From an uncultured Clostridia bacterium (GTDB taxonomy: Bacteria > Bacillota > Clostridia > Oscillospirales > Acutalibacteraceae), in assembly GCA_946186665.1 (NCBI GenBank), contig CAMHOE010000002.1, forward strand, positions 31,014-95,013: a stretch of 64,000 nt of DNA, read 5' to 3'. Position 1 is the stretch's first letter. Each line of letters begins with the position of its first letter. Both the position numbers and the translations under genes were made by a program. The notes beneath the pieces are model-generated. The model was not told the DNA's origin, did no database searches, and was given only the letters and a program-made list of their open reading frames with translations. Below are positions 1 to 56,920 of the stretch, piece by piece.

Positions 1-71
1 ATATAAAGCTCACCTACCCATTTGATTTCACCCTTGCTGTAGCGATACTTACATAAATGCGTATAAAAATT

Positions 72-770: not shown

Positions 771-1440
771 AAGCTTCAAGCTAACCACTAACCACTATTT
801 CGTCTTTGAGTACGCTGCGTATACGGCGGGTGACCCCGCAGGACGACTTAACAACGCATCTGCTTTTGTCTGAACCGTCCGCGTCACGCTCTAAAGGAGC
901 GCTTTAGCTACTACTGTACACGTCTCAAAATGCCGAACAGGAACCCTCTGCTGAAATCGGAAGTTTAAACTCTGACCACTTCCCACTAACCGCTAACCAC
1001 TATTTCGTCCTTGAGTACGCTGCGTATACGGCGGGTGACCCCGCAGGACGACTTAACAACGCATCTGCTTTTGTCTGAACCGTCCGCGTCACGCTCTAAA
1101 GGAGCGCTTTAGCTACTACTGTACACGTCTCAAAATGCCGAACAGGAACCCTCTGCTGAAATCGGAAGTTTAAACTCTGACCACTTCCCACTAACCGCTA
1201 ACCACTATTTCGTCCTTGAGTACGCTGCGTATACGGCGGGTGACCCCGCAGGACGACTTAACAACGCATCTGCTTTTGTCTGAACCGTCCGCGTCACGCT
1301 CTAAAGGAGCGCTTTAGCTAATACTGTATACGTCTCAAAATGCCGAACAGGAACCCTCTGCTGAAATCGGAACTTTAAACTCTGACCACTTCTCACTAAC
1401 CACTAACCACTATTTCGTCCTTGAGTACGCTGCGTATACG
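771..1440. repeat. 205-bp tandem repeat, about 3.2 copies. Each unit holds CCACTAA-type heptads, a copy of the last ~37 nt of the crp-family CDS, and the ~125-nt module M10.
   Basis: The anchor ACCACTATTTCGTC occurs at 791, 996, 1201 and 1406. Units differ by about 1-5 mismatches. The last partial unit is the true 3' end of the CDS at 1396-2004. Confidence 0.95.
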
Positions 1441-2004
1441 GCTCAGCGATTCCGGCTTTATCCCAAGATATGTAGCTATATGCTTCTTTGGTACACGTTC
1501 AACAAGCTCGGGATACAGCTTCTTGAAATGAAGATAACGCTCTGTTGCGTTCTCCACAAGAAAGCCGTTTTCTCTGTACATCTTGTACCGCAGACTCTGC
1601 TCCAGCATATTTATCCAGATAGTTTTCAGACCTTCATTTCCCATGATAAAGGCTTTCAGCTCGGAGACATCAAACAGCATTACAACAGTCTCTTCAATAG
1701 TCTCCCACATACATATATGCTCCTTATAGCCCATCATGCCCTCATCCATGCACCAGCCGCCCGGGATACCAAAGCCCCTTGTAATGTCGTTTCCGTCACC
1801 GTCAATGTAATAGCTTCTTACAAGACCGTCAACAACTATACCGGCTGTACCGGCTGTTTCGCCTATACCTGTAACAACGGCGTTTTTGGGATATACCCTG
1901 AACCTTGCCATCTCCACAGCACGACTCAGCACACCTTCCTCAAATCTGACATCGTATTTATCAGCAAGGGCTTTAAGCTGTAAAACTATAGACTCCTTAT
2001 TCAT
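1396..2004 (-). CDS. Crp/Fnr family transcriptional regulator (cNMP-binding domain plus C-terminal HTH)
   Basis: 202 aa with a C-terminal HTH (HIATYLGIKPESLSRIRSVLKDE). The start is 1 nt from the stop of the upstream CPBP gene. The stop TAG and the last residues IVVSG lie inside the heptad repeat. Confidence 0.8.
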   Translation of the reverse strand: MNKESIVLQLKALADKYDVRFEEGVLSRAVEMARFRVYPKNAVVTGIGETAGTAGIVVDGLVRSYYIDGDGNDITRGFGIPGGWCMDEGMMGYKEHICMWETIEETVVMLFDVSELKAFIMGNEGLKTIWINMLEQSLRYKMYRENGFLVENATERYLHFKKLYPELVERVPKKHIATYLGIKPESLSRIRSVLKDEIVVSG

Positions 2005-2867: not shown

Positions 2868-4229
2868 TCAGCCGTCCTCATACTGATAAGAAAGCTTTAC
2901 TCTCAGTGTTCCTGCCGCTTCATTTTTCAGCACAGAAACGCCGTCTGTTTTTATCTTGTGGTTGTCGTCCAGAGTATCGTTTGCACAATCTATACAGTAG
3001 TAAAACTCGTAGGGTGCTTCATTGAACAGTTTGGTAAAATATTCATTATAGGTCATATCCGTACCAAACCTCAGAGGAACATAAGTCTCTCCCATAAGGG
3101 CTGTCTCTCTTATCTTTGCACTCAGGGTATCTGTGAGCCTTTCATCAAAGCTCTGTACCACAACACCCTCCGCATAATAGTAGTTCATGTCCTTTGATGT
3201 ACACATCGGAACAAAGAAATTGTATCTTATCAGGCTGTTTGCATCCTCTTCCCTGCGTGACTCCGATATCTCCGTTATGCTCTCGGATATGGAATGGTTA
3301 GCGCATATATACTCTGTTGTGACATTGAAATACTCATAGTTTATATTATCATCATTATCGTCCCATGTGGCATCCAGATGATACCATTCTCCGTTCATCT
3401 CCACCACGTTCCACATATGCGCAACACCGTCTGCTTCACCCCTTACGGTACTGCACACGATACCTACCCTTGTCATAAGAAGCTGTATTGCTTTGGAATA
3501 GCCCTCACACACAGCTTCTCCGTCAACGACAGCACCATATGCGGAAAAATACTGCCAGCCGTCAGAGGACGAAGTAACGCCTGTTTTATACGTACAGTTT
3601 GAGATAAGCTTATCATGAATGATTTTTTCCCTCTGATACTCAGTTCTGCCGGAGCCGACTGATGACAAGATCTCATCGACCCTCTGGTTAAAGCGGTCTA
3701 TATAAATTTCACATTCATCAGAGGATATCACAGAATAGAACTCAACTATTGTACAATCATCAACATAAGCATAGCCAAAGATATTTTCCATCCAGAATAT
3801 TTCAGGGTTATCGCTTATATAGGCATTAACGACCTCACGAATATCAAATTCAGAGAGCTTAACGCCGGGTATTCTTATTCTCGAGGTACGATATCTTCCG
3901 TTTGCATCCGGTTCATTAGTAACTCTGTACACACTCCCGTGAATTCGGTCATAGAGATCACGTTTTACATCGGTATCCAGTGCATTATAGCCTGTTTTCA
4001 CTGTAACGAGTCTATAGTTCTCAGCGGAGTAGTTATATACCTCTGTATTTATTTTTTCATACTCAGTCTCTTCTTTACCGTCATCGCTTATTTCTATTGC
4101 TTCTATATCATCATAGACACTGCCCGCCTTATTTGATGTTGTAAAAAAGAGCATAAAACAAGCTATCAAAAGAGTTACTGCAAACCCAAAAAACAACACA
4201 TAGAGTAAATTCGAAACAACCCTTTTCAT
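2868..4229 (-). CDS. Transglutaminase-like (cysteine protease fold) protein with an N-terminal TM anchor
   Basis: Contains a Cys..His..Asp core (CEGYSKAIQLL ... HMWNVVEMNGEWYHLDATWDD). I place the start at ATG 4229 (MKRVVSN), which has a GGGAGGG RBS. The ORF-track start at 4247 lies in a repeat hairpin. Confidence 0.7.
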   Translation of the reverse strand: MKRVVSNLLYVLFFGFAVTLLIACFMLFFTTSNKAGSVYDDIEAIEISDDGKEETEYEKINTEVYNYSAENYRLVTVKTGYNALDTDVKRDLYDRIHGSVYRVTNEPDANGRYRTSRIRIPGVKLSEFDIREVVNAYISDNPEIFWMENIFGYAYVDDCTIVEFYSVISSDECEIYIDRFNQRVDEILSSVGSGRTEYQREKIIHDKLISNCTYKTGVTSSSDGWQYFSAYGAVVDGEAVCEGYSKAIQLLMTRVGIVCSTVRGEADGVAHMWNVVEMNGEWYHLDATWDDNDDNINYEYFNVTTEYICANHSISESITEISESRREEDANSLIRYNFFVPMCTSKDMNYYYAEGVVVQSFDERLTDTLSAKIRETALMGETYVPLRFGTDMTYNEYFTKLFNEAPYEFYYCIDCANDTLDDNHKIKTDGVSVLKNEAAGTLRVKLSYQYEDG

Positions 4230-4241
4230 ACAACCCTCCCG

Positions 4242-4672
4242 GCGCAAGGCTTGCGCTCCCGATTCACGCTATCGTTCGCTTACGCTCACTCTGATATCCA
4301 GACCTCAACTTTTCCTGTCCGCGATTAACGGCGCAGACTTGCCAGACAATATTCCCCACCCGCCGGCGCAGGCTAAGAGCCTGCTGTTTCGGCTGTTTTA
4401 ACCGCACAAATAGTTTTATTCTCCTACTCAACTTTATGCGCCTGCATATCCCAATGTGCAATGTGCAATGTTCAATGAAATAGCTCAAAGCCCAAAGCCT
4501 CCCCTTTAGGGTAAGTGACAGAAATTTACATAGTAAATATTTGCCAGACGGGTTCCATTCAGCGAATGCACTCGCAATTCTTTACAGCACTTGCTATATT
4601 TCGTTTTCGCTAAAGCGAAAACGTACCACAACTATTCACTATTCGTTATTCACTATTCATTATTCACTATTT
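4242..4672 (+). repeat. Full-length mosaic intergenic repeat (archetype). Module order is M1 hairpin-27mer, M2, M3, M4, M5, H3 heptads, M7, M8, H2 heptads.
   Basis: M1 is gcgcaaggcttgcgctcccgattcacg. M4 is ..ccgccggcgcaggctaagagcctgctgtttcggctg. H3 is caatgtgcaatgtgcaatgttcaatg. M8 is ..ttcgttttcgctaaagcgaaaacgtaccacaa. H2 is (ctattca)n. Each module is found again at 6326-6913, 10039-10487, 18566-18818 and 38584-39100, among other sites. Confidence 0.9.
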
Positions 4673-4676
4673 CCGG

Positions 4677-5162
4677 TCACGCACCGCCTGATTTTTTTGT
4701 TCCGGAGTTTTTGTTCTGAAAATTTTTAAGGCTCTGTCTTGTTTTTTTCAGGGCTGCAAGATTTGCGGAAAGCTCATCGTCAGCCTTTTTCATTATGTTG
4801 TCTATATAGCTGTTGGCAGCGTTCCTGATTTTTGCAGCTTCTGCATTTGCTTTGTTGATTATCTCACTTGCCCTCTGCTGAGCCTGCCTTGTGATTTCAT
4901 TATGCTCCACCATAGCTTTGGCTCTTTCCTCTGCCTGCTGAACTATCGTCTCTGCTTCCTGCTTTGACTTTGCTAAAATGTTGCTGCGGTCTGCCGCAAT
5001 ACTCTTTGCCTGTCTTACCTCCTGCGGCATATTGGTGCGCATCTCGTCTACTATCTCCTGTATACGCTCTGCATTGACTACTTTTTTGCCGCCTGAAAGG
5101 GGCATTTTCGCTGAGGTATCGATTATCTCCTGAAGCTCGTCTATCAACATTTCCAGTTTCAT
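4677..5162 (-). CDS. Coiled-coil protein of unknown function (ATPase subunit b/G-like heptad-rich helix)
   Basis: 161 aa, rich in A/E/K/Q and predicted helical. It overlaps the coaD stop by 4 nt, which suggests translational coupling. Confidence 0.5.
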   Translation of the reverse strand: MKLEMLIDELQEIIDTSAKMPLSGGKKVVNAERIQEIVDEMRTNMPQEVRQAKSIAADRSNILAKSKQEAETIVQQAEERAKAMVEHNEITRQAQQRASEIINKANAEAAKIRNAANSYIDNIMKKADDELSANLAALKKTRQSLKNFQNKNSGTKKSGGA

Positions 5163-6325: not shown

Positions 6326-6913
6326 GTCAGGCGGGTAACCCCGCCGGACGACTTAGAACGCATAGACTTTATTAAGAACCGTCCGCGTCACGCACCTAAA
6401 GGTGCGCTTTGGCTACTGCTGTACACGTCTACAACTGCCGAGTGGAACCCCTACGTCAAAGATTTACTATGTAAATTTTTGACACCTCCCCTTTCAGGAG
6501 AGACGGAAATAGTGAATAGTGAATGGTGAATAATGAATAGTGAATAGTTGTGGTGCGTTTTCGCTTAGGCGAAAACGAATTATAGTAAGTATAATATAAA
6601 CTACAACTTCAAACAGTACAGGCGCACATATTTACGGAGGAGGAGAAACTGTCTGCTCGAAGAGTGCAGCCGAAACAGCAGGCTCTTAGCCTGCGCCGGC
6701 GGATGGGGATGAGGGTCTGCCGGTTCCGCGCCGTTAATCGCGGACAGTAAAAGTTTTGGTTATACTAAACAGAGTGAGCTTTAGCGAACGCCAACGCGAA
6801 TCGGGTGCGCAAACCTTGCGCCGCCGTTTATCGCGGACAGGAAAATGTTTGGTCATACTATCAGAGTGAGCTTTAGCGAACGCCAACGCGAATCGGGTGC
6901 GCAGGCTCTGCGC
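6326..6913 (-). repeat. Mosaic intergenic repeat in the opposite orientation to 4242-4672. Plus-strand order is M10, M7, H2, M8, M5, M4, then (M3-M2-M1) x2.
   Basis: The reverse complement of 6666-6715 matches M4 of 4337-4396. H2 here reads gaatagtgaatagtgaatggtgaataatgaatagtgaatag. A 93-bp unit is duplicated (ccgttaatcgcgg at 6731, ccgtttatcgcgg at 6824). The last hairpin abuts the uvrC stop. Confidence 0.9.
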
Positions 6914-8777: not shown

Positions 8778-10016
8778 TCAGTAGTAAATACTCAGTATAC
8801 ATCCGGATGTGCTCACAGAATAGGATATCCCATCATTTATCCGGTCAATATCAAAAACCTTCTGCTCCACAATAAGCTCGTTCATAGCTTCATCCAATAC
8901 CTCCGGCGATGAAAACTTCACCGACAGTCCGCCGTCTGCATAGTACCATTCCGCCGCATCCTGTACATAGCTGAAATCGTAATCTTCAAAATACAAGCCG
9001 TTATATACGTAGTAATTGTACTTTGTTCCTGTTTCATCCGGTACGGGCATAGTGCCGTCTATCGTGTGAGTGTTCTTCATGTCATCATAAGATATCAGAA
9101 AGTATTCATAGGTTTTAGTATTTTCTCCGTCATCCTTTATAGGGTCGTCCCATGTCAGGTCAATAAAGTAGTATTCGCCGTCCACGCATACATAGTTCCA
9201 TTGGTGAGAACCGCTTTCTGACGCTCTTGTGCCGTTCACCTTGCCGCACTCTATGCCAAGCCTGTGCATTATCAGCTGAAAGGCAGTGGAATACCCGGAG
9301 CATATCGCAGTGTTTTCCACAAGACAGCCGTATGCTGTTGAAGCGTTCAGCAAGCCTTCATTCTCTTCCGCTTTGATAAGCGCAAGGGTTTCGGTGTCGT
9401 ATACGGTATTATTTATTATATAGTCGTGAACATAAAGTATCTTTTCATAGGTGTTCTCTTTTGAAGCGGCTTCATTCACTATATCAGATACTATACTCTC
9501 TAATTCCTTCTGAGCCTTGATTATCTCATCGTCATCATCGCTGAACAGTGTTGGAGAAACGGTTATCTCTGATTGTTCGCCGAGTGTTTTCATCTGGTAG
9601 GTAAAGCTTTTTCCAAGCCAGAAATATTCCGGATGGTCGTCAAGCACAGCATAATAGGCAGTCTTTACATCATCCTCAGCTTCATTTTCAAAGACAAATT
9701 CTGTTTCCAGCTCTTCTATCATAACTGTAAAGCGGTTATAGAGTTCCGTTTGTTTTTCGCTGAGGGTATTCTTCAGTGAATACCGATACTCCTGCATAGA
9801 GTCAGAAGACTCAGCCCATGATATTTCAGATTTTTCCTCACTGCTCTCTGCTAAGGGAGCTTCACTGTCTTCCTCAATTCCGGCACTTACAGAATGTTCC
9901 GGTTCTATCGGAGCATCATCTCTGATAAGATGTTCCCAATCCACAGAGCATCCGCCCAGAACACAAGTCGCTGCGACTGCCGCAGCCGTAATCCTTATTC
10001 CATTTTTCACTCTCAC
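8778..10016 (-). CDS. Transglutaminase-like lipoprotein, paralog of 2868-4229
   Basis: Lipobox VLGGC, an acidic linker, and a core CSGYSTAFQLI ... HQWNYVCVDGEYYFIDLTWDD. GTG start with a GGGGGA RBS. Confidence 0.7.
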   Translation of the reverse strand: MRVKNGIRITAAAVAATCVLGGCSVDWEHLIRDDAPIEPEHSVSAGIEEDSEAPLAESSEEKSEISWAESSDSMQEYRYSLKNTLSEKQTELYNRFTVMIEELETEFVFENEAEDDVKTAYYAVLDDHPEYFWLGKSFTYQMKTLGEQSEITVSPTLFSDDDDEIIKAQKELESIVSDIVNEAASKENTYEKILYVHDYIINNTVYDTETLALIKAEENEGLLNASTAYGCLVENTAICSGYSTAFQLIMHRLGIECGKVNGTRASESGSHQWNYVCVDGEYYFIDLTWDDPIKDDGENTKTYEYFLISYDDMKNTHTIDGTMPVPDETGTKYNYYVYNGLYFEDYDFSYVQDAAEWYYADGGLSVKFSSPEVLDEAMNELIVEQKVFDIDRINDGISYSVSTSGCILSIYY

Positions 10017-10038
10017 CCTTATCCCCCTTTCGCCGGCG

Positions 10039-10200
10039 GCGCAGAGCCTGCGCTCCTAATTCGCGGCGCAGAGCCTGCGCTCCCAATTCGCGGCGCAGAG
10101 CCTGCGCTCCCAATTCGCGGCGCAGAGCCTGCGCTCCCAATTCGCAGCGCAGAGCCTGCGCTCCCAATTCGCGGCGCAGAGCCTGCGCTCCCGATTCGCG
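10039..10200 (+). repeat. 27-bp tandem array x6 of module M1 (hairpin GCGCAGAGCCTGCGC plus TCCCAATTCGCG)
   Basis: GCGCAG occurs at 10039, 10066, 10093, 10120, 10147 and 10174. There are no spacers. Confidence 0.95.
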
Positions 10201-10487
10201 TTGCCGTTCGCTGAAGCTCACTCTGATATTCTGACCAAAACTTTTCCTGACCGCGATTGACGGCGCAGACATGACAGATAATCGTTCCCATCCGCCGGCG
10301 CAGCCCTTAGAGGCTGCTGTTTCGGCTGTTTCATCCGTACAAATAGTTTTATTCTCATACTCAACTTTATGCGCCTATACATCGTAAAGCTGTAGTTTAT
10401 TATATTCTTACTATGATTGTTTTCGCCGCAGCGAAAATATACCACTATTATTCATTATTAAGTCTTAAGTTTTCAGTATTCATTAAT
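10201..10487 (+). repeat. Mosaic repeat continuation: M2, M3, M4, M5, promoter-like M8 variant, and an AT-rich H5 tail
   Basis: gttcgctgaagctcactctgatatt ... ccgccggcgcagcccttagaggctgctgtttcggctg ... ctgtagtttattatattcttactatgattgttttcgccgcagcgaaaatataccactattattcattattaagtcttaagttttcagtattcatta. The tail matches 37258-37527. Confidence 0.9.
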
Positions 10488-11564: not shown

Positions 11565-11579
11565 ATCCTCACCCTTTTT

Positions 11580-11750
11580 CAATGTTCAATGTACAATGTG
11601 CAATGTGCAATTAATAACTTCAAAGCTCAAAGCTTCACTCAGCGAAGAGATCCACAGATCCTATTGCACTTACTATAATTCATTTTTGCTTTAGCAAAAA
11701 TGTACCACAACTATTCGTTATTCACTATTCACTATTCATTATTCACTATT
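11580..11750 (+). repeat. Short mosaic repeat: H3 heptads, M7 fragment, M8 (TATAAT plus hairpin), H2 heptads
   Basis: caatgttcaatgtacaatgtgcaatgtgcaatt ... cttactataattcatttttgctttagcaaaaatgtaccacaa ... (ctattca)n. Confidence 0.9.
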
Positions 11751-11756
11751 ATAATT

Positions 11757-11783
11757 AAAGCCTGTCGGTATACGGCAGGCTTT
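11757..11783 (-). terminator. Hairpin immediately after the ftsZ stop
   Basis: aaagcctgtcggtatacggcaggcttt forms an 11-bp stem with one G-U pair. The downstream U-tract is weak. Confidence 0.5.
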
Positions 11784-11789
11784 AAGAGA

Positions 11790-13317: not shown

Positions 13318-14931
13318 TTACTCTTCATAGTACTCATCGCCGGTATAATCATAGGTCTCATCGTCCGCATAATCTTCATCTTCTTCGTAATAGTACGCAT
13401 CCCCGAAATCATAATCTTCATCCGTGCCGTCATCGTCTGTATACTCGCCGTCATCATATGTGCCGTCATCGTCTGTATATTCGCCGTCATCATCCGTGCC
13501 GTCATCGTCTGTATACTCGCCGTCATCGTCCGTGCCGTCATCGTCCGTATACTCGCCGTCATCATATGTGCCGTCATCGTCCGTATACTCGCCGTCATCA
13601 TCCGTGCCGTCATCGTCCGTATACTCACCGTCATCATATGTGGTCTCATCGTCGGTTTCCTCTCCGGTGGTTTCGGGGTCGCCGGTGTCAGCGTCACTTG
13701 TCTCATCCTCATTGGCGCCGCTTTCTTCTGCTTTGCTGCTTTCAGACGAGGACTCTGTCTTTTTCTTTGTGTCCGAAGTTGTCTTAGGCTTTGATACCTT
13801 TGACGCCTGAGCGGAGCTTTCATCAGCCTGTGAGCTGTAGTATGACTTTCCTCCCTCAGCGGAGCAAAGAGACACGTCAAGTATTCCTTTGTCCTTTTCG
13901 GAGAGACTCTTTTCGATTATCTTCTTTGCCGTTTTGAGCTTATAGTCAATGCTTTCCGGCGTACCGATGACGATACGCAGTCCCTGCTTGGTGGTAAGCG
14001 TTATCTTTGACATATTGGAAATATCAATGATATCGATCGTACCCAGCTTATATTTCTCCTCAGCGTCAAGGATCTCGTTGATATATCCCTCTACGTTTTC
14101 ATCCTTGTACTTTACAGCAGAGGACAGCTTCGGTTCTTTGAGCTTCGCACCCATTATCTTGGGTATGTTTGTATTTCGCAGGGTGTCGGAAATATCTATT
14201 ATCTTTCCGCTCTCGCTGAGCAGAACATACTTACCCTCACTCTCGATAACGCAGGTGGGAGTTGCTTCCTTGACTGTTATCACAATCCTGTTGAACAGTT
14301 CTTTGCTGATAGTTACCTTTTCTATGTACGGGAATTTCTCCCAGATATTTTTTTCTCCCGGAGATGTATTGCAAAGGATGAGGTTATCACCCTGTTTTAT
14401 CATGCAGGAGGATTTTATCTCATCTCCGCTGTAGCGTGATTTTCCCTTTACTTCTATTTCGTCTATCTTGAAGAATACCGTAAGGGAAAGCACAAAGCAT
14501 ACAGACACAAGCACAAGCAAGGTCACCGCATAAAACAGCACTCTTAGTACCTTGCGCTTATAGGGGCTTCTGGGTTCCTTCGCCGGAGGCAAAGGCTTTA
14601 CATAGTGCAGACCGCTTTCTCTCGGAGGTCTTTTCAGCATATTCTCGGCACTCTTGTCTATCTCTCCCTGAAACGCCATGTCCTCTTTATAGCTTCCGGC
14701 ATCATTCATCTTGATGCTGTTTTTGCTTCTGTTCTTTTTAAGACTGGTATTGCTTATTTTCCTTACCGGCTGCGGAGTACTCTTTGCACTTCCTGAGCTT
14801 TTCTCGTTTGGATTTCTTCTGCCCTTTTGAGGCGGAGATTTTCCGCTGCCGGCGGTTCCTTTTATATTTGACGGTATGGGTTTTTTCTTGCCTTCACCGC
14901 TTCGGTCTTTACCCGATGGCTTTTTGCTCAT
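13318..14931 (-). CDS. ftsQ: FtsQ/DivIB-type cell division protein with a basic N-terminus, one TM segment, POTRA/FtsQ domains and a long acidic repetitive C-terminal tail
   Basis: Sits between murG and ftsZ. TM segment VLFYAVTLLVLVSVCFVLSLTVFF is followed by IDEIEVKGKSRYSGDEI (POTRA-like). The tail is (DGEYTDDDGT[YD]D)n. Confidence 0.75.
   Translation of the reverse strand: MSKKPSGKDRSGEGKKKPIPSNIKGTAGSGKSPPQKGRRNPNEKSSGSAKSTPQPVRKISNTSLKKNRSKNSIKMNDAGSYKEDMAFQGEIDKSAENMLKRPPRESGLHYVKPLPPAKEPRSPYKRKVLRVLFYAVTLLVLVSVCFVLSLTVFFKIDEIEVKGKSRYSGDEIKSSCMIKQGDNLILCNTSPGEKNIWEKFPYIEKVTISKELFNRIVITVKEATPTCVIESEGKYVLLSESGKIIDISDTLRNTNIPKIMGAKLKEPKLSSAVKYKDENVEGYINEILDAEEKYKLGTIDIIDISNMSKITLTTKQGLRIVIGTPESIDYKLKTAKKIIEKSLSEKDKGILDVSLCSAEGGKSYYSSQADESSAQASKVSKPKTTSDTKKKTESSSESSKAEESGANEDETSDADTGDPETTGEETDDETTYDDGEYTDDDGTDDDGEYTDDDGTYDDGEYTDDDGTDDDGEYTDDDGTDDDGEYTDDDGTYDDGEYTDDDGTDEDYDFGDAYYYEEDEDYADDETYDYTGDEYYEE
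13424..13639 (-). repeat. In-frame 36-bp tandem repeat x6 encoding the acidic FtsQ tail
   Basis: The unit gtgccgtcatcgtctgtatactcgccgtcatcatat starts at 13424, 13460, 13496, 13532, 13568 and 13604. Confidence 0.9.
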
Positions 14932-14962: not shown

Positions 14963-15091
14963 TCAATATTCAATGTACAATGTGCAATATTCAATGTTCA
15001 ATCTTTCACTCAAAACACTTACTATAATTCGTTTTAGATTTATCAAAAACGCACAGTCATTCCACATTCCACTTTTCACATTCCACATTTT
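14963..15091 (+). repeat. Short mosaic repeat: H3 heptads, M8 variant (TATAAT), reverse-complement H1 heptads abutting the murG stop
   Basis: tcaatattcaatgtacaatgtgcaatattcaatgttcaatc ... cttactataattcgttttag ... cattccacattccacttttcacattccacatttt. Confidence 0.9.
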
Positions 15092-18565: not shown

Positions 18566-18818
18566 ACCTTATTCGTTATTCGTTATTCTTTATTCACTAT
18601 TTCCGCACAACACGGATGGTTCAAGTAAAAGCATTATGCGTTGTTAAGTCGTCCAGTACGGTCACGCACCGCCGGCGCCGCCCTCAAGGGCTGCTGTTTC
18701 GGCTGCTTTATCCGGACATACAGTCTTTTTCGCCTGCACAGCTTTACGCGCCTGCATATTACAATGTTGAATGTATAAGCTCAAGCAAACCGGAATCCAC
18801 ATCAAGCTTACTATAACA
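18566..18818 (+). repeat. Mosaic repeat with rearranged order: H2 heptads (rc), M10 fragment, M4, M5, H3, M7 fragment, start of M8
   Basis: cttattcgttattcgttattctttattcactattt ... gcgttgttaagtcgtccagtacggtcacgcaccgcc ... ggcgccgccctcaagggctgctgtttcggctgc ... acaatgttgaatgta ... cttactataac. It ends 5 nt from the stop of the next gene. Confidence 0.85.
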
Positions 18819-25430: not shown

Positions 25431-25632
25431 ACCCCTCCGGCAATAATTTACATTGTAAATCATTGTCAGAGGGGTTTTCGCGCTAACTTGTGGTTCGTAT
25501 GAAAACTGCGTCCATATCAAACCTACTATAATTCGATTTTGCTTTAGCAAAATCGTACCGCAACTATTCACTATTCTCTATTCACTATTCTCTATTCACT
25601 ATTCTCTATTCACTATTCTCTATTCACTATTT
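25431..25632 (+). repeat. Mosaic repeat: M7 (stem acccctc/gaggggt around ATTTACATTGTAAAT), M8, and a long H2 array with 14-bp super-period x5
   Basis: cctactataattcgattttgctttagcaaaatcgtaccgcaa then (ctattcactattct)x5. The final unit contains the mnmA TAG stop (25627-25629). Confidence 0.9.
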
Positions 25633-27428: not shown

Positions 27429-27447
27429 ATTCCACATTCCACATTTT
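27429..27447 (-). repeat. Minimal H1 heptad block just upstream of the CBS-protein RBS
   Basis: attccacattccacatttt. Confidence 0.6.
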
Positions 27448-27490: not shown

Positions 27491-29092
27491 TCAGCTTACT
27501 TCATATCTCTCGGCAAGATATTCGTCATAGGACTCTGTTACATCCCTTATGCCGTCTTTCTCAAGCACTATTATTCTGTTTGCCACTGTAGATATGAACT
27601 CATGGTCATGAGATGTGAACAGCACAACACCCTTAAAGCTCTGTAAGCCCTTGTTCACCGCTGTAATAGACTCAAGGTCAAGGTGGTTTGTGGGCTGGTC
27701 AAGAATAAGACAGTTTGCGCCGAACATCATCATTCTTGAAAGCGTACAGCGAACCTTCTCGCCGCCGGAAAGTACATTTACAGGCTTGAACACATCGTCT
27801 CCGGAAAACAGCATTCTTCCCAGAAAACCTCTGAGGTAAGTATCAGTATCGTCATTTCCTCTTACATACTGACGTATCCAGTCCAGTATGCTCATGTCGT
27901 TGCCCTCAAAGAAGCTTGTATTATCCTTCGGGAAATATGACTGTGAAGTACTTATTCCCCACTTGAACTTGCCCTCGTCAGGCTCCATATGCTCAGTGAG
28001 TATTTCAAACAAGGTCGTTACTGCGATCTCATTATCACAAAGGAATGCCACCTTATCAGTACGCTCTATGCGGAAGGATACATTATCAAGCACCTTTTCT
28101 CCGTCAACAGTTTTTGAAAGGTTCTCTACAGTGAGTACCTCCTTACCGACCTCTCTGTCCATCGTAAATCCTACAAACGGATAACGTCGGCTTGAAGCAG
28201 GCATTTCCTCGACAGTGAGCTTTTCAAGAAGCTTTCTCCTTGAAGTAGCCTGCTTTGACTTTGATTTGTTTGCAGAGAAGCGCTGTACAAAGCTTTGCAG
28301 TTCCTTTATCTTTTCCTCAGTCTTTTTGTTCTGCTGTTTTATCATGGACTGAATAAGCTGTGATGACTCGTACCAGAATTCGTAGTTGCCCACATACATC
28401 TTTATCTTGTTGTAGTCGATATCCACCATATGGGTACAAACAGTGTTGAGGAAATGTCTGTCATGGGAAACAACTATAATGGTTCCCTCATAATCAAGTA
28501 TAAAATCCTCCAGCCATGCAATAGCCTTGACATCAAGGTTGTTTGTAGGCTCGTCAAGAAGTATTATTTCCGGATTGCCGAAAAGCGCCTGTGCAAGAAG
28601 CACCTTCACTTTTTCATTACCTGTAAGGGCGCTCATCATTGAATACAAAATGTCCTCCGAAAGACCAAGACCCTGTATCAGCTTTGAAGCATCACTTTCC
28701 GCTTCCCAGCCGTTCAGCTCCGCAAATTCCGCTTCAAGCTCCGAAGCTCTTATGCCGTCCTCATCAGAAAAATCCTCTTTCTGATATATCGCATCCTTTT
28801 CTTTCATTATATCGTACAGCTTTTTATTGCCGTATATTACAGTGTCAAGGACTGTATAGCTGTCAAAAGCAAAGTGATCCTGTTTCAGAACAGACATTCT
28901 TGTGTTTTCAGGTATTATCACCTCACCCTTTGTGGGTTCAAGCTCACCCGAAAGCACCTTCAGAAAAGTTGACTTTCCTGCGCCGTTAGCTCCTATTATA
29001 CCGTAGCAGTTTCCGTCTGTAAATTTCAGATCTACATCTGAAAAAAGCGGTGTACCGCTGAAATTTATCGAAACATTCGATACTGTTATCAT
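27491..29092 (-). CDS. ABC-F family ATPase (YbiT-like, two ABC domains, no TM)
   Basis: 533 aa with two Walker A motifs (GANGAGKST, and a weak one in the second half), LSGGEK signatures and an inter-domain linker. Confidence 0.85.
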   Translation of the reverse strand: MITVSNVSINFSGTPLFSDVDLKFTDGNCYGIIGANGAGKSTFLKVLSGELEPTKGEVIIPENTRMSVLKQDHFAFDSYTVLDTVIYGNKKLYDIMKEKDAIYQKEDFSDEDGIRASELEAEFAELNGWEAESDASKLIQGLGLSEDILYSMMSALTGNEKVKVLLAQALFGNPEIILLDEPTNNLDVKAIAWLEDFILDYEGTIIVVSHDRHFLNTVCTHMVDIDYNKIKMYVGNYEFWYESSQLIQSMIKQQNKKTEEKIKELQSFVQRFSANKSKSKQATSRRKLLEKLTVEEMPASSRRYPFVGFTMDREVGKEVLTVENLSKTVDGEKVLDNVSFRIERTDKVAFLCDNEIAVTTLFEILTEHMEPDEGKFKWGISTSQSYFPKDNTSFFEGNDMSILDWIRQYVRGNDDTDTYLRGFLGRMLFSGDDVFKPVNVLSGGEKVRCTLSRMMMFGANCLILDQPTNHLDLESITAVNKGLQSFKGVVLFTSHDHEFISTVANRIIVLEKDGIRDVTESYDEYLAERYEVS

Positions 29093-29112: not shown

Positions 29113-29239
29113 TTTAAAATGTGGAATGTGGAAAGTGGAAAGTGGAATAGCACTTAGTGCCGCTCCTTGAACGAGAAGCTTTTGAACACTTTGGGCTTTG
29201 AGCTTTCCACTGACCACTAATCACTAATCACTAATCATT
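29113..29239 (+). repeat. Compact mosaic element bounded by heptad arrays: H1, central hairpins, reverse-complement H4
   Basis: aaaatgtggaatgtggaaagtggaaagtggaat ... gcacttagtgc ... ctttgggctttgagcttt ... ccactgaccactaatcactaatcactaatcatt. The last heptads encode the trmL C-terminus and its TAG stop. Confidence 0.9.
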
Positions 29240-29753: not shown

Positions 29754-29785
29754 GTTAGTGATTAGTAGTTAGTTGTTAGTAATTA
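29754..29785 (+). repeat. H4 heptad array directly upstream of the trmL RBS, inverted relative to the array at 29207-29239
   Basis: gttagtgattagtagttagttgttagtaatta. Confidence 0.85.
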
Positions 29786-33159: not shown

Positions 33160-33315
33160 AGCTCAAAGTAGTGGTCAGTGATCAGTAGTTAGCGGTTAGT
33201 GTTCAAAGCCTCCCCTTCAGGGGAGGCGGCACAAAGTACCGGAGGGGTCCCATCCGATACAGCCGCAGTTCTTTACAGAACGCACAGCAATTCCACTTTC
33301 CACTTTCCACATTTT
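33160..33315 (-). repeat. Compact mosaic element, inverted version of 29113-29239: H4, M7 hairpin, M8 fragment, reverse-complement H1 abutting the fabZ stop
   Basis: gtagtggtcagtgatcagtagttagcggttagtg ... cctccccttcaggggagg ... ttctttacagaacgcacag ... attccactttccactttccacatttt. Confidence 0.85.
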
Positions 33316-37257: not shown

Positions 37258-37527
37258 CTGAAGTTGCAGTTTATATTATACTCACTATAGGGAACCTCTA
37301 AAAACCTCCCTCACGGCGATTTTGCTATGTCTTTTTCCGTATACTTCGTTGTTAAGCCTTTTAATACATAAAGTATTAATGCGGCTTTCCGCCTCGTCTA
37401 CGAAAAAATCCATATACGCAAACTCGCTCGTGTTCCGGTTTTTAGAGAACCCCTATAATTGTTTTCGTTGTACGAAAACAAAACCACTATTATTCATTTT
37501 TAAGTTTTAAGTTTTCAGTATTCATTA
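37258..37527 (+). repeat. Mosaic repeat (promoter-like M8 variant plus H5 tail, same type as 10381-10487) interrupted by a 164-bp insertion
   Basis: gaagttgcagtttatattatactcacTATA [insertion] TATAattgttttcgttgtacgaaaacaaaaccactattattcatttttaagttttaagttttcagtattcatta is colinear with 10388-10487 once the insert is removed. Confidence 0.85.
37290..37453. mobile_element. MITE-like non-autonomous insertion (164 bp) with imperfect 17-nt terminal inverted repeats and a TATA target-site duplication
   Basis: Left end is GGGAACCTCTAAAAACC. The reverse complement of the right end is GGGGTTCTCTAAAAACC (14/17 match). TATA flanks it at 37286-37289 and 37454-37457. It splits the TATAAT box of module M8. 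No ORF inside. Confidence 0.65.
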
Positions 37528-37530
37528 TTA

Positions 37531-38583: not shown

Positions 38584-39100
38584 CGCAGAGCCTGCGCTCC
38601 CGATTCGCACTCTCGTTCGCTAAAGCTCACTCTGATATTCAAACCGAACATTCACTGCCCGCGTTTAACGGCGCAAATTTGTCAGACAATATTCCCCATC
38701 CGCCGGCGCAGGCGCAGAGCCTGTGCTCCCGATTCGCGGCGGAGCGCCTCCGCTGTCGATTCGCGCTCTCGTTCGCTAAAGCTCACTCTGACAATATGAC
38801 CAATACTTTTCCTGCCCGCGTCGGACGGCGCAGAACCAGCAGACATCCATCCCCATCCGCCGGCGCAGCCTTAGGGCTGCTGTTTCGGCTATACTCTCTG
38901 AACAGAAAGTTTTTTTGCTCACTCAACCTTATGCGCCTGTATATTCCAATGTACAATGTTCAATGTAAAATTTTCATTATTCTGTACCAAAACTACAGAC
39001 GTGAACGAAAATAGCCAAAGTGCTCCTCTATGGAGCACGACGCGGACGTTCCTTAGCATAGTTTATGCGTTCTAAGTCGTCCAGTGCGGTCACGCACCGG
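38584..39100 (+). repeat. Large mosaic repeat: M1-M2-M3-(partial M4)-M1-M1'-M2-M3-M4-M5-H3-spacer-M10(rc)
   Basis: cgcagagcctgcgctcccgattcgc / gcgcagagcctgtgctcccgattcgcg / gcggagcgcctccgctgtcgattcgcg; two copies of gttcgctaaagctcactctga; ccgccggcgcagccttagggctgctgtttcggct; ccaatgtacaatgttcaatg; ..atgcgttctaagtcgtccagtgcggtcacgcacc. Confidence 0.9.
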
Positions 39101-39158
39101 CTTGAACTTGGGGGGAATTTGTGGTATGATGGGTTATCATAGATATGTGACGGTGAAA

Positions 39159-41075
39159 ATGATGGCAGTTGTAACGGTGAGCGGACTTTCAATGGAGTTC
39201 GGCGAACAAAAACTTTTTGATAACATGTGCTTTGAAGTGCAAAGCGATGACAGAATAGGACTTATCGGAGTCAATGGCTGCGGTAAGACGACCTTGTTTA
39301 AATTACTTACCGGTGAGTATTCCCCCTCTGACGGCAGTATCATTATCAATAAGAATACTCAGATAGGTTATATGGAACAGCACGTTTGCAGAGACCTGGA
39401 CAGGTCTGCGTATGATGAGGTACTGTCGGTTTTCAGTGAGCTGCTGAATATGGAAACGGAGCTTGAACAGCTTAATGAAAAAATACACTCCGGCTCCGGT
39501 GACCTCGATGCCCTCGTGGAAAGACAATCCTTTCTTAATGATGAGTTCACAAGAAGAGACGGTCTTACCTGCCGCGCAAGGGCAAGGTCTGCGCTGCTCG
39601 GTCTTGGCTTTGACGATGACAGAATGAGCCTGCCTATACGCTCACTCAGCGGCGGACAGCGTGCAAAGCTTCAGCTTGCTAAATTGTTGCTGTGCGGCGC
39701 TAACTTTCTCCTGCTTGATGAGCCTACCAACCACATGGATACTCAATCTGTTGAGTGGCTTGAGGAATACCTTGTTAACACTAAATGCGCATATCTCGTT
39801 ATTTCTCATGACCGCTATTTTCTTGATAAAGTCACACACAGGACATTTGAACTTGAAAATAAAAAAATGACTGCGTATAAAGGAAACTACTCCGCCTATC
39901 TTCCTCAAAGGGATGAACGCAGACTTGCAGCGCAAAGAGTGTACGATAATACCGTAAAGGAAATAAACCGTCTGGAGGGTATCATCGAACAGCAAAGAAG
40001 ATGGAACCGTGAGAAGAATATTAAAACTGCCGAGAGCAAACAAAAAATCGTGGATAAGCTGGAACAGAATCTTGAACGTCCCGAAAAACTGCCGGAAGCT
40101 ATGAGCTTTAAGCTCGGTATAAACGAACAAAGCGGTGAGGATGTTTTAGAGGTAAGCAATGTATCGCTGAGCTTTGACGGCAATACACTGTTCGATAACG
40201 TCAATATGGAAATACACAGGGGCGAGAAAATATTCATACTCGGACCCAACGGCTGCGGAAAAACCTCTCTTATAAAGACCCTGCTTGGACAATATACGGC
40301 AGACAGCGGAAGGATACGCTACGGTGTCGGAGTAAAAACAGGCTACTACGACCAGATACAGACCGGCATGGACAGCAGCAAAACTGTATTTGAGGAAATA
40401 TCCGACAGCTTCCCGTCAATGACAAATACTGAAATACGCAGCACACTGGCTCGCCTGCTTTTCAAAAACGATGACGTTTTCAAGCCGCTTTCAACACTCA
40501 GCGGCGGCGAACGCGCAAAAGTCCTGCTTACAAAGCTCATGCTGTCAAGAGCGAATTTCCTCATGCTGGACGAGCCTACCAACCATCTCGATATCAATTC
40601 CTGCGAGGCATTGCAGGACGCATTGTCCGAATACGAAGGGACCGTACTTGCAGTTTCCCACGACAGATATCTTATCAATAGTATCGCTGACAAGATCTTT
40701 TATCTTACACCAAACGGGATAGAAGTCTATGAAGGAAATTACGAGGGCTTCCTGAAAAAGTTCCAGCCCTTTAAGGAACCTGAAAAACAAAAAGCTATAC
40801 AGCCCGAAAAACAGCTTGACTACAAAAACAAAAAGGAACGTGACGCGCTTCGCCGGAAGAACAAGGTCAGACTGTCAAAGCTTGAGACAGGCATATCCGA
40901 ACAGGAGGATAAGATATCAGAGCTTGAAAACGAGCTTAACGACCCTGCAAACTCTTCCGATTATGAAAAAACTCTCTCCCTGACAGAAGCTCTTGACAAT
41001 GCTCAGCAGACACTTGAAGGTATGTACGAGCAGTGGGAGGAGCTGAGCCTGTGGCTTGCAGAAAACGAACAATAA
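39159..41075 (+). CDS. ABC-F family ATPase (Uup-like, with a C-terminal coiled-coil extension)
   Basis: Two ABC domains (GVNGCGKTT, GPNGCGKTS, LSGGQRAK / LSGGERAK) and a K/E-rich C-terminal coiled coil. I place the start at ATG 39159. The ORF-track GTG 39084 lies inside repeat module M10. Confidence 0.85.
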   Translation: MMAVVTVSGLSMEFGEQKLFDNMCFEVQSDDRIGLIGVNGCGKTTLFKLLTGEYSPSDGSIIINKNTQIGYMEQHVCRDLDRSAYDEVLSVFSELLNMETELEQLNEKIHSGSGDLDALVERQSFLNDEFTRRDGLTCRARARSALLGLGFDDDRMSLPIRSLSGGQRAKLQLAKLLLCGANFLLLDEPTNHMDTQSVEWLEEYLVNTKCAYLVISHDRYFLDKVTHRTFELENKKMTAYKGNYSAYLPQRDERRLAAQRVYDNTVKEINRLEGIIEQQRRWNREKNIKTAESKQKIVDKLEQNLERPEKLPEAMSFKLGINEQSGEDVLEVSNVSLSFDGNTLFDNVNMEIHRGEKIFILGPNGCGKTSLIKTLLGQYTADSGRIRYGVGVKTGYYDQIQTGMDSSKTVFEEISDSFPSMTNTEIRSTLARLLFKNDDVFKPLSTLSGGERAKVLLTKLMLSRANFLMLDEPTNHLDINSCEALQDALSEYEGTVLAVSHDRYLINSIADKIFYLTPNGIEVYEGNYEGFLKKFQPFKEPEKQKAIQPEKQLDYKNKKERDALRRKNKVRLSKLETGISEQEDKISELENELNDPANSSDYEKTLSLTEALDNAQQTLEGMYEQWEELSLWLAENEQ

Positions 41076-43070: not shown

Positions 43071-43336
43071 CTGCCCGCGTTTCTCCGCCCAACACGCCCC
43101 TTACGGTGCGCTTATGGGCGGTTTTGGTTTTGGAGGAAAGTTAAAGTCGTGTACTGTAATAGCCAAAGTGTTCCCTATGGAGCACGATGCGGACGGTTCA
43201 GACAAACATAGATGCGTTCTAAGTTGTCCAGTGCGGTCACGCACCGACGCGGACGGTTATATCAAAAGCAGCTGCGTTGTTAAGTCGTCCTGCGGGGTCA
43301 CCCGCTGCGTTGTTAAGTCGTCGGCCGGGTCACCCG
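42999..43336 (+). repeat. Mosaic repeat beginning inside the mtaB 3' end: M1-M2-M3, spacer, M10(rc) with an internally triplicated arm
   Basis: gtgcagagcctgcactcccaattcgcgg cggcgttcgctaaaactcactcagacattctgaccgaaact ... atagccaaagtgttccctatggagcacgatgcggacgg ... gcgttctaagttgtccagtgcggtcacgcacc / gcgttgttaagtcgtcctgcggggtcacccgc / gcgttgttaagtcgtcggccgggtcacccgc. Confidence 0.9.
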
Positions 43337-43392: not shown

Positions 43393-43468
43393 TGGTGGGA
43401 ACAATAGGGCTCGAACCTATGACCCTCTGCTTGTAAGGCAGATGCTCTCCCAGCTGAGCTATGCTCCC
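43393..43468 (-). tRNA. tRNA-Val (anticodon TAC), CCA encoded
   Basis: The reverse complement GGGAGCATAGCTCAGCTGGGAGAGCATCTGCCTTACAAGCAGAGGGTCATAGGTTCGAGCCCTATTGTTCCCACCA folds as a cloverleaf with anticodon loop CTTACAA. Confidence 0.95.
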
Positions 43469-43494
43469 ATTTACACTTTTCAATCGGAAAAAGT

Positions 43495-43581
43495 TGGTGC
43501 GGGTAACAGGACTTGAACCTGCACCTCCTTGCGAAGACCAGCACCTGAAGCTGGCGCGTCTGCCAATTCCGCCATACCCGC
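43495..43581 (-). tRNA. tRNA-Leu (anticodon CAG), long variable arm, CCA encoded
   Basis: Reverse complement is GCGGGTATGGCGGAATTGGCAGACGCGCCAGCTTCAGGTGCTGGTCTTCGCAAGGAGGTGCAGGTTCAAGTCCTGTTACCCGCACCA, with anticodon loop TTCAGGT. Confidence 0.95.
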
Positions 43582-56888: not shown

Positions 56889-56920
56889 ATCTGCACCTCA
56901 AAAATCAATATATATTCCCC

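Follow-up and report, generated by a model that had tools for sequence, protein, structure and literature searches.

The window, namely the whole 64,000-nt stretch of a rumen Clostridia lineage analysed here, carries tandem arrays of 7-nt units beside mnmA, ftsZ, murG, fabZ and other genes (Table 1). The array at the end of mnmA (about 25563-25631) comprises 9.9 heptads, or 4.9 perfect 14-nt units of CTATTCACTATTCT, as revealed by TRF at periods 7 and 14, and five perfect ACTAACC units occupy 56197-56231. Using TRF together with our own period scan (threshold score at least 8), we detected 29 period-7 arrays, compared to 0-5 in 20 third-order Markov simulations. The same scan yielded 0-3 arrays at periods 5, 8, 10 and 11, ten at period 6 and eight at period 9. 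As many as 26 of the 29 period-7 arrays are intergenic, in a window with a non-coding share of 15.5% (binomial P about 2e-18). The arrays reported in an earlier note on this DNA are thus real, being recovered by both methods, and its four families H1 to H4 all check out with their strands.

Further analysis revealed that the arrays share a common register of N-N-N-A-R-T-G, with A at position 4 in 77 of 88 units, T at position 6 in 73 and G at position 7 in 78. The pattern WWWNGTG, to which all arrays had been fitted, is too strict, as the first base is G or C in H1, H3 and part of H4. In the H2 units AATA is fixed and positions 5 and 6 vary, the units reading UAG, UAA or neither. The (GCTTTGA)n mini-arrays and the (AATACTG/AAAACTT)n arrays, here termed b-type, fall outside the register. 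One strand of the arrays lacks C and the opposite one lacks G. The GTG shared by the families is better explained by common descent and by partial complementarity of inverted arrays, in which the GUG and CAC cores pair. A likeness of the heptads to DnaA boxes (7/9 match) and a primase trinucleotide reading were dropped as numerology or untestable, as was complementarity to the 3' end of 16S rRNA, which spans 4-5 nt as expected by chance. An Rfam search of the window at gathering scores returned two tRNAs as the only known RNA families.

Table 1. Heptad arrays and M1 modules along the window, with strand and context.
Feature	Position	Strand	Context
H2 (AATAGTG/AATAGAG)x~10	25563-25632	-	G-rich in mnmA sense; first unit contains mnmA stop TAG (25629-25627)
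H2	4631-4672	-	begins about 5 nt past stop of ORF 4677-5162
H2	11711-11750	-	follows ftsZ terminator-like hairpin (11755-11785); other array type at orthologous L245 site
H2-like (AATAACG/AATAAAG)	18568-18602	-	abuts mraY RBS upstream; G-rich in sense, exception to orientation rule
H2	6505-6548	+	part of M1 module inverted relative to genes
H1 (AATGTGG)n	15058-15091	-	about 2 nt past murG stop; murG C-terminus altered relative to L245
H1 x2.4	27429-27447	-	ABC-F>CBS spacer; not in L081
H1 (AAAGTGG)n	33290-33315	-	8 nt past fabZ stop; L081 has about 2 units
H1 x2	57777-57791	-	3' of ORF 57807-58373
H1	68-98	+	G-rich on + strand; repeat family D17
H1, (UUCCACW)n in gene sense	29116-29148	+	just upstream of ABC-F RBS
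H1, (UUCCACW)n in gene sense	56043-56078	+	upstream of ylqF RBS
H3 (CAATGTG)n	4450-4477	+	C-rich in gene sense
H3	11578-11612	+	directly upstream of pyrB RBS
H3	14963-15003	+	upstream of ftsQ RBS; pairs with H1 array 15058-15091 (z -4.4)
H3, short	18761-18779	+	
H3	38946-38970	+	
H4 (GATTAGT/GGTCAGT)	29207-29239	-	contains trmL stop TAG (29233-29231)
H4 (GTTAGTG x5, ATTAATG x2, others)	56158-56232	-	6 nt past signal peptidase stop
H4 x4, one per 205-bp tandem unit	781-800, 975-1002, 1180-1207, 1394-1412	-	last holds stop of ORF 1396-2004
H4, (CTAACNA)n in gene sense	29754-29785	+	abuts trmL RBS; right end of 115-nt insertion absent from L081
H4, C-rich in gene sense	33168-33201	+	pairs with H1 array 33290-33315
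b-type (AATACTG AAAACTT AAGACTT AATAATG)	10447-10482	-	3-6 nt past pyrB stop
b-type	37489-37529	-	begins at fabH stop
(GCTTTGR)n mini-array	4482-4499		adjoins H3; others at 11620-11634, 29189-29206
M1 module (GGTAC, 8-bp covarying hairpin, GAATTATAGTA)	25510-25572	-	adjoins H2 array at mnmA end
M1, further copies	4578-4640, 11657-11719, 10395-10456, 15006-15068, 37437-37498, 57728-57783	-	
M1, further copy	6539-6601	+	

Thirteen arrays are G-rich in gene sense, 12 of which follow a stop codon, and 8-9 arrays that are C-rich in sense precede starts; the one exception (18569-18601) is G-rich in sense and precedes the mraY RBS. By our own reading, ten of 14 G-rich-in-sense arrays begin at most 8 nt from the upstream stop. 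The stops of mnmA, trmL and an ORF with a cNMP domain (1398-1396) lie inside arrays; H2 and H4 do supply working stops, as the earlier note had claimed, and comparison with a sister organism shows that they took the place of ancestral C-terminal codons. The third of these genes, labelled crp in the note, has only a sub-threshold match to a cNMP-binding domain (26.4 bits versus a cut-off of 27.5). Stop codons in all frames were found for the H2, H4 and AAAACTT types, which make up 9 of the 13 G-rich-in-sense arrays, but not for H1, which closes 0-1 frames. The H3 and H1 arrays that are C-rich in sense close 0-3 frames.

The sister is represented by L081 and L245, which share an ENA sample and are treated as one organism; protein identity to the window is 95% for mnmA and 97% for FtsZ. 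Their roughly 30 kb of sequence orthologous to window regions with about 14 arrays contains a single weak period-7 array in L081 and none in L245. Sequence alignment revealed array-bearing blocks specific to the window, namely a 115-nt insert that ends in the array at the trmL RBS, 50 additional nt between ABC-F and CBS, and replacements of the murG>ftsQ and trmL>ABC-F spacers. The ftsQ>ftsZ spacer, which bears a promoter, has no arrays and is about 95% conserved between the two organisms. Where an array or element abuts, the C-termini of mnmA (3 aa shorter than its L081 orthologue), trmL, fabZ, murG, uvrC and ORF 4677 are shortened or changed relative to the sister. Ten other genes were compared, eight of which have identical ends; in pyrB and accC a single C-terminal residue differs, and a b-type array lies just past the pyrB stop. 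Overall, the comparison shows arrays that are recent and dispensable, as the sister lacks most of them beside the same essential genes.

The arrays vary in length and sequence between the window and both L081 and L245, and related species differ in heptad sequence, for example TAATTCA and TTTCAAC in L082. The length polymorphism between isolates that the earlier note proposed to look for was not seen among L082-L085, four 99.8%-identical strains of another, related species, which argues against slippage that is fast on that timescale.

A hairpin module associated with the arrays, M1, has eight copies in the window, one in L081 and none in 1.3 Mb of sequence from 80 further Clostridia loci, and scanning JGI metagenomes for its pattern yielded no copy either. 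Both organisms keep M1 at two sites, after mnmA and after ftsZ, and the array type differs at both. The modules recur in the order of array, M1 hairpin, variable part, (GCTTTGA)n and inverted array. The arrays lie outermost in composite spacer elements, as the earlier note had stated, and several spacers have a central part that occurs nowhere else in the window. Similar to MITEs, these elements are short, non-coding, multi-copy (eight M1 copies) and present or absent between close relatives, with insertions relative to L081 and L245. Unlike MITEs, they are bounded by inverted heptad arrays that vary in type and length, instead of by defined terminal inverted repeats. The clean accA>trmL insertion shows no target-site duplication, and the 64-kb window has no transposase gene, RAYT/Y1 included. 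To call them mobile elements is therefore to argue from copy number and presence or absence, because a transposase, a target-site duplication and a clean terminal inverted repeat were not found. Two promoter candidates within M1 were rejected: TGGTAC-N5-TTGC as a sigma-54 promoter, as its GG-to-GC spacing is 11 instead of 12 by our own count, off by 1 nt; and TATAAT/TATAGT as a sigma-70 promoter, as promoter-like sites number 37 versus 34.6 in shuffles and have no consistent -35 element.

Ordered short modules in operon spacers, including a covarying hairpin, are also typical of REP/BIME- or BOX-like repeats. E. coli BIME/REP, pneumococcal BOX, ERIC and Correia elements are mosaic intergenic repeats with hairpin modules, which are operon-internal, strain-variable and co-transcribed with their neighbours. 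The window elements resemble them as modular, non-coding, multi-copy elements in operons with tandemly variable sub-units, but differ in that their end modules are 7-nt microsatellites instead of fixed inverted repeats, with no known RAYT or transposase and no target-site duplication seen.

Heptamer repeats themselves have been known in bacteria since 1990 (STRR) without an agreed function. Mazel et al. in 1990 reportedly described the cyanobacterial STRR heptamers CCCCAGT, TTGGTCA and CAACAGT. Heptamer repeats of Nostoc lie near start codons, with modest or unclear effects on reporters (bioRxiv 10.1101/2022.06.06.494920). Similar to these, the window arrays comprise several families per genome and are intergenic and often right at start codons, but they belong to another phylum and have other sequences, and stop-codon donation is not reported for STRR. 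The closest parallel is provided by the heptameric intergenic SSRs GGGAATC of Xanthomonas and GGGGAYT of Nostoc (Rehm et al. 2015, PMC4692102). Both sets consist of tandem 7-nt units with a strong intergenic bias and a preference for spacers between co-oriented ORFs; their G-rich strand is the coding one at most 50 bp after a stop, sometimes overlapping it, and the non-coding one at most 50 bp before a start. They also share inverted pairs, length and sequence variation between close relatives, housekeeping neighbours and the lack of a known function. Compared to the Rehm heptamers, the window units, N-N-N-A-R-T-G, are rich in AT and unable to form G-quadruplexes, several families coexist in a rumen Clostridia host, and the arrays are joined to other modules such as M1 and give stops to clipped genes. 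Long SSRs as defined by Mrazek form the general class, in which 7-nt units predominate according to the passage citing them in PMC4679880. In marine Beggiatoaceae, the direct repeat TAACTGA, a heptamer with two stop triplets for which S1, Csp or CsrA readers were proposed (MacGregor 2015, PMC4679880), is likewise intergenic, at gene boundaries and patchy across phyla. It is, however, a single heptamer mostly in 2-6 copies just 5' of starts, whereas the window has several heptads, mostly after stops, and inverted pairs. TRF and the period scan found no TAACTGA arrays in the window.

According to Rehm et al. (PMC4692102), the sense strand is the G-rich one directly after a stop, and directly before a start the G-rich one is antisense. 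We found the same bias in bystander arrays of 159 unrelated viral contigs, whose ORFs were called crudely as the longest ORFs of at least 90-120 aa. After stops, 98 arrays are G-rich versus 6 C-rich in sense; before starts, 51 are C-rich versus 23 G-rich. Adjacent pairs follow the order G-rich then C-rich in 84 cases and the reverse in 5, and the former order also holds for six spacers of the window. The contigs obeying this inward G-rich rule span 20-70% GC. Moreover, the bias persists at 10:0 in arrays without a stop on the G-rich strand, so that an artefact of ORF calling is rejected and stop donation is therefore not the whole reason for the orientation. The published rule thus extends to many unrelated contigs, is strand-symmetric and holds without stop codons. 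Avoidance of Rho loading was dropped as a reason, as cyanobacteria, which to our knowledge lack Rho, obey the rule. In addition, arrays of AATAGTG and TTAGTGG occur in 48 and 76 viral contigs, compared to 9 and 14 for two control heptads of matched composition, a 3-8-fold excess that hints at sequence-specific selection or spread beyond neutral slippage.

On balance, we favour as most likely the explanation that the arrays belong to the STRR or long-SSR class of heptanucleotide simple-sequence repeats already described in other bacteria, that they serve as end modules of lineage-specific, non-coding mosaic spacer elements which have proliferated recently, and that they are selfish or neutral, slippage-prone repeats, selection passing those orientations that are harmless to translation. 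Composite elements and arrays are quickly gained, lost and replaced, hence a sister without most of them. They would grow and change by replication slippage in steps of 7 or 14 nt, which would account for runs that are locally perfect and for the differing array types at one orthologous site. From either end of a spacer the G-rich strand reads inward in the 5' to 3' direction, an orientation that is probably what purifying selection lets through. The C-free strand is stop-rich, so that an element entering the last codons would end the ORF at once in any frame. We infer that the G-free strand facing the next gene would offer neither AUG or GUG starts nor Shine-Dalgarno-like runs. Once transcribed within operons, inverted arrays are predicted in silico to pair as an interrupted stem, with 5-bp blocks and 2-nt loops in alternation, which could tolerate register shifts and loop out the inserted element. 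Any effect of the arrays on expression would then most likely be a side effect rather than a designed regulatory code.

Such stems might instead be what selection maintains: post-stop and pre-RBS arrays would pair as RNA zippers, loop out the spacer and join a stop to the next RBS, thereby coupling translation or protecting the mRNA. Coupling or mRNA protection by paired repeats has been proposed for REP/BIME, ERIC and BOX. The order of G-rich and C-rich arrays in six window spacers and in 84 of the 89 inverted pairs elsewhere agrees with this idea, as do array-array duplexes that are significant in four of six spacers (z -2.5 to -4.4), long-range pairing in the minimum-energy folds of the spacers (z -2.0 to -3.0), and the alternative pairing of a C-rich array with the purine-rich RBS. 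However, the z-scores of whole-spacer folds are modest (-1.5 to -3.0), H2/H3 array pairs have no significant pairing, many arrays stand alone, and the sister copes with short array-free spacers. We thus consider selected zippers unlikely.

The earlier note had proposed an RNA-binding oligomer. On a reading of this kind, the arrays would be tracks for a protein with a 7-nt footprint, either HutP-like (UAG-N4) or of the cold-shock, S1 or CsrA type, through which the neighbouring cistrons would be controlled in their termination, read-through or stability. H2 and H4 indeed read exactly (UAG-N4)n in sense, and the note correctly gave the spacing of the HutP site in the Bacillus subtilis hut leader, which has XAG triplets with 4-nt spacers and a 7-nt period on single-stranded RNA (PMC2425495). 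The sense strand after stops is almost C-free and should be unstructured and accessible; the excess of AATAGTG and TTAGTGG arrays over the controls and the readers proposed for TAACTGA repeats (PMC4679880) point the same way. But HutP requires two sets of three XAG triplets flanking a terminator stem in a 5' leader (PMC2425495), whereas the arrays consist of 3-10 continuous units at 3' ends or in operon spacers, with no such terminator and no two XAG sites 12-17 nt apart. Three XAG triplets with 4-nt spacers are present in H2 and H4 and absent from H1, H3 and the other heptads, so half of the families have none, and H2 itself varies at positions 5 and 6, AATA being its fixed part. A TRAP site consists of 9-11 (G/U)AG triplets 2-3 nt apart, a spacing that does not fit the 4 nt found here. 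Searches against protein-family libraries found no HutP-, TRAP-, Hfq- or CsrA-like protein among 46 ORFs scanned in these 64 kb of the genome, about 10 further ORFs, mostly fab/acc, lying outside the scan. Furthermore, heptad sequences are not constant between related species, and the same housekeeping genes in the 95-97% identical sister have almost no arrays or another type, which argues against a conserved regulon. The oligomer is thus unsupported, and we regard this reading as distinctly doubtful.

Equally doubtful in our judgement is that inward G-rich arrays at stops are a cross-phylum functional device instead of junk, built on a conserved factor with a 7-nt footprint or on undiscovered mobilisation machinery. 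If true, the ARTG heptads seen here would represent one dialect of such a device in a rumen lineage.

Alternatively, the arrays may act on DNA, for example as iterons bound by a protein, as signals for the nucleoid or replication, or as ends recognised by an unknown transposase or recombinase. The strand symmetry of the inward G-rich rule, as for element ends, and the inserted blocks bordered by arrays are in line with this possibility. We nevertheless consider it very improbable, as consecutive sites 7 bp apart fall on different helical faces, sigma-70-type sites are not enriched, the sigma-54-like match in M1 is off in spacing, and neither a transposase gene in the window nor a target-site duplication was seen. 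That the arrays are phase-variation (contingency) loci switching their neighbours by length change is barely credible: they are tandem repeats with a unit that is not a multiple of 3 and a copy number that differs between lineages, but they lie at 3' ends and in operon interiors of housekeeping genes (dcw, fab, tRNA modification) instead of at surface or virulence genes, in their promoters or 5' coding regions, show no length polymorphism within the four nearly identical strains L082-L085, and resemble heptamers for which Rehm et al. concluded likewise against it (PMC4692102).

Altogether, the window adds a Clostridia example to the bacterial heptamer repeats, in which arrays arrive as parts of mosaic elements, clip gene ends and donate stop codons, and for which the sister, without most arrays at the same essential genes, serves as a natural control. 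For annotation, C-termini adjoining these repeats derive from the array, and contigs are prone to break at such sites. The strand symmetry and stop-independence of the orientation rule narrow the candidate explanations for these repeats.

A period scan of the 64-kb window detected 29 arrays with a period of seven nucleotides, compared with 0-5 in third-order Markov simulations; periods of 5, 8, 10 and 11 gave 0-3 arrays, a period of 6 gave ten and a period of 9 gave eight. Non-coding DNA makes up 15.5% of the window yet houses 26 of the 29 (P about 2e-18). The four families distinguished in the earlier note, H1 (GAATGTG/GAAAGTG)n, H2 (AATAGTG)n, H3 (CAATGTG)n and H4 (GTTAGTG/ATTAGTG)n, had all been placed and stranded correctly, and two further heptads were found, (GCTTTGA)n and the b-type (AATACTG/AAAACTT)n. 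The consensus WWWNGTG could not be upheld, the best common register being N-N-N-A-R-T-G. The arrays include perfect runs of 14-nt and 7-nt units, a sign that they expanded locally and recently. The window covers chromosomal housekeeping genes of an uncultured Clostridia bacterium that forms spores and bears a cellulosome; among genomes, a MAG from roe-deer rumen matches best (MnmA identity 76%). The window contains the dcw cluster (mraZ, rsmH, spoVD, mraY, ftsW, murG, ftsQ and ftsZ), pyrB, uvrC, mnmA, an ABC-F gene and trmL, in addition to an acc/fab cluster, clpXP, tig, rplS and a dockerin protein; most genes lie on the minus strand.

The spacers share a recurrent order in gene sense: stop codon, G-rich C-free array, the hairpin module M1, a variable part, (GCTTTGA)2, C-rich array, and RBS with start codon, where G-rich and C-rich refer to the strand read in the direction of the adjoining gene. 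The post-stop array is of type H2, H1, H4 or b-type, and the pre-RBS array is H3, H1 or H4 read in reverse. On our reading of the spacer maps, the upstream stop lies within 8 nt of the start of 10 of 14 G-rich-in-sense arrays, and three stop codons lie inside arrays. Of the 13 G-rich-in-sense arrays tallied for stops and composition, 12 lie after a stop codon, and the remaining one (18569-18601) lies ahead of the mraY RBS; their C count is 0-3, mostly 0 or 1, and five of nine C-rich-in-sense arrays have no G. All three reading frames are closed by nine of the 13, so that the claim of stops in all frames holds only for H2, H4 and b-type arrays, H1 arrays closing none or one.

The window was compared with sister contigs L081 and L245 (same ENA sample; MnmA 95% and FtsZ 97% identical), which are taken as a single organism and share synteny with the window over about 30 kb. 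Across this region the window carries about 14 period-7 arrays, compared with one weak array in L081 and none in L245. Pairwise alignment revealed a clean window-only insertion of 115 nt, which has as its right end a (CTAACNA)n array immediately next to the trmL RBS. The trmL>ABC-F and murG>ftsQ spacers have been replaced, the ABC-F>CBS spacer has 50 nt more in the window, including (AATGTGG)2, and some other sites have insertions in the sister only. The spacer at ftsQ>ftsZ, which bears a promoter and has no arrays, shows about 95% identity between the two organisms. M1 lies 3' of mnmA and of ftsZ in both organisms, whereas the adjoining array differs, being AATAGTG-type in the window and AATACTG/AAAACTT-type, ending in AATAATAG, in the sister. 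Judged by these alignments, the heptad arrays are recent and dispensable. A different species, represented by four strains (L082-L085, MnmA 83%), has its own element, which in four genes begins at the stop codon, in constant orientation relative to the gene.

Compared to the sister, the C-termini of mnmA, trmL, fabZ, murG, uvrC and ORF 4677, all abutted by arrays or elements, are shortened or altered. Ten comparison genes were inspected (ftsZ, ftsQ, pyrB, a transglutaminase-like gene, spoVD, accA, accB, accC, fabF and an ABC-F gene), eight of which end as in the sister; in pyrB and in accC a single C-terminal residue is different, and a b-type array also lies 3-6 nt past the pyrB stop. Stop donation is therefore real: elements have inserted into the final codons of genes, or have grown into them, and the new stop comes from the element.

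M1 is invariably beside a heptad array, and its hairpin shows compensatory changes at four pairs. It is confined to the window organism and its sister: with a covariance model, eight copies were detected in the window and one in L081, and 80 further Clostridia loci (1.3 Mb in total) had none, a pattern scan of JGI metagenomes found none, and Rfam gave no match. As a sigma-54 promoter it was rejected, and as a sigma-70 promoter it is not convincing. Separately, the long hairpin between mnmA and spoVAE looks like a bidirectional terminator.

Positions of arrays, repeat modules and associated genes
Feature	Contig	Positions	Description
Array at mnmA	window	25563-25631	9.9 tandem heptads, or 4.9 perfect 14-mer copies of CTATTCACTATTCT; minus strand (mnmA sense) (AATAGTG AATAGAG)n
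mnmA stop TAG	window	25629-25627	within first unit of the array
M1	window	4578-4640, 6539-6601, 10395-10456, 11657-11719, 15006-15068, 25510-25572, 37437-37498, 57728-57783	GGTAC + 8-bp covarying A/U-rich hairpin + GAATTATAGTAAG
205-bp unit	window	781-1442	3.2 copies, 98% identity; one H4-type array per unit
cNMP-binding-like ORF	window	1396-2004	3' end overlapped by last 205-bp unit; final codons and stop repeat-derived
27-nt hairpin unit GCGGCGCAGAGCCTGCGCTCCCAATTC	window	10036-10200	REP-like, 6 tandem copies
Copies related to GCGGCGCAGAGCCTGCGCTCCCAATTC	window	38711-38765, 6729-6903, 4240-4270	
Paralogous transglutaminase-like genes	window	2868-4247, 8778-10016	GCGGCGCAGAGCCTGCGCTCCCAATTC directly 5' of both RBSs
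Larger composite module (repeat families D5, D6, D10, D12)	window	4215-4450, 10147-10383, 38585-38916, 18683-18760	GC-rich hairpins, e.g. GCGCAGGCTAAGAGCCTGC; second repeat family, interleaved with heptad elements
TGCGTTGTTAAGTCGTCC...GGTCACGCACCGC module	window	18637-18672, 39065-39100, 43212-43308	four copies, two in tandem adjoining the tRNAs
tRNA-Val and tRNA-Leu	window	43393-43581	
ORF	window	4677-5162	3' end similar to part of TGCGTTGTTAAGTCGTCC...GGTCACGCACCGC
Long hairpin CCCCTCTGACAATGATTTACA / TGTAAATTATTGCCGGAGGGG	window	~25440-25490	between convergent mnmA and spoVAE; kept in L081
Signal peptidase I genes	window	56238-58373	three tandem paralogues, heptad elements in spacers between them
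ABC-F ATPase genes	window	27491-29092, 39084-41075	
ftsQ/divIB-like gene repeat	window	13418-13653	in-frame 36-nt repeat, 6.6 copies; acidic Tyr/Asp/Glu-rich C-terminal tail
(TAATTCA/TAATGCA)n then TAATTRCCCTGYGGG	L082	55-95, 1921-1965, 8240-8265, 13575-13617	example sites
NNNAGTG-type heptad arrays	L086	907-1095	example
NNNAGTG-type heptad arrays	L093	1130-1193	example
NNNAGTG-type heptad arrays	L129		example

Heptad arrays are a general, previously described phenomenon. The heptameric repeats of Xanthomonas and Nostoc favour spacers separating co-oriented ORFs, with the coding strand G-rich within 50 bp past the stop (stop overlaps included) and the non-coding strand G-rich within 50 bp ahead of the start; they occur in inverted arrangements, are transcribed, vary among close relatives, and were assigned no function (Rehm et al. 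2015, PMC4692102). TAACTGA repeats were described by MacGregor 2015 (PMC4679880), where Mrazek is cited as having found long SSRs to be dominated by units of 7 nt, perhaps via polymerase slippage. We scanned IMG/VR viral contigs for three window types, AATAGTG (H2, 48 contigs matched), TTAGTGG (H4, 76, several from human microbiome samples) and AATGTGG (H1, 12), and for two controls of H2 composition, ATAAGTG (9) and AATATGG (14). Orientation was tallied in these 159 viral loci (20-70% GC), with the caveat of crude ORF calls, using "bystander" arrays, i.e., those other than the search seeds. On the sense strand, 98 arrays after stops are G-rich versus 6 C-rich, and 51 before starts are C-rich versus 23 G-rich; adjacent pairs run G>C in 84 cases and C>G in 5, an asymmetry independent of the strand read. 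Arrays without a stop codon on the G-rich strand still show an after-stop bias of 10:0, and the bias is thus not an artefact of ORF truncation. NNNAGTG-type arrays occur in many unrelated contigs of the viral set, including human-gut and giant-virus MAG contigs, frequently as neighbouring pairs in inverted orientation, predicted to fold into long hairpins.

Within a spacer, the array after the stop and the one before the RBS run in opposite orientations and are partially complementary via GUG(G)/(C)CAC cores. One reading is an RNA zipper whose function is under selection. Array-array duplex energies are better than those of shuffles in four of six spacers, namely murG>ftsQ (z-score -4.4), signal peptidase>ylqF (-4.2), trmL>ABC-F (-3.1) and fabZ>accC (-2.5), and long-range array pairing is visible in whole-spacer folds, whose z-scores are modest (-1.5 to -3.0). 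Against this, pairing in both H2/H3 combinations is not significant versus shuffles, and we consider such a zipper improbable. Slightly less likely still are arrays read by a binding protein with a 7-nt footprint, the HutP analogy being formally correct for H2 and H4 but breaking down over the site architecture, over H1 and H3, and over the lack of arrays in the near-identical sister.

On the favoured reading, mosaic spacer elements would travel with the arrays as their end modules, and selection would pass only arrangements harmless to translation of the neighbouring genes. The C-free, stop-rich strand would meet incoming ribosomes, and the next RBS would be faced by the G-free strand, in which AUG, GUG and purine-rich Shine-Dalgarno-like runs are impossible. 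This selective rationale is incomplete, because stop-free arrays follow the orientation rule as well. Neither a target-site duplication nor a transposase was found within the window and sister alignments, so that the word "mobile" is based on copy number and presence/absence. The first three steps, namely turnover, local expansion and orientation of the arrays, are demonstrated here. Altogether, the arrays are best explained as heptanucleotide repeats that are prone to slippage, are selfish or neutral, and form the end modules of mosaic spacer elements.
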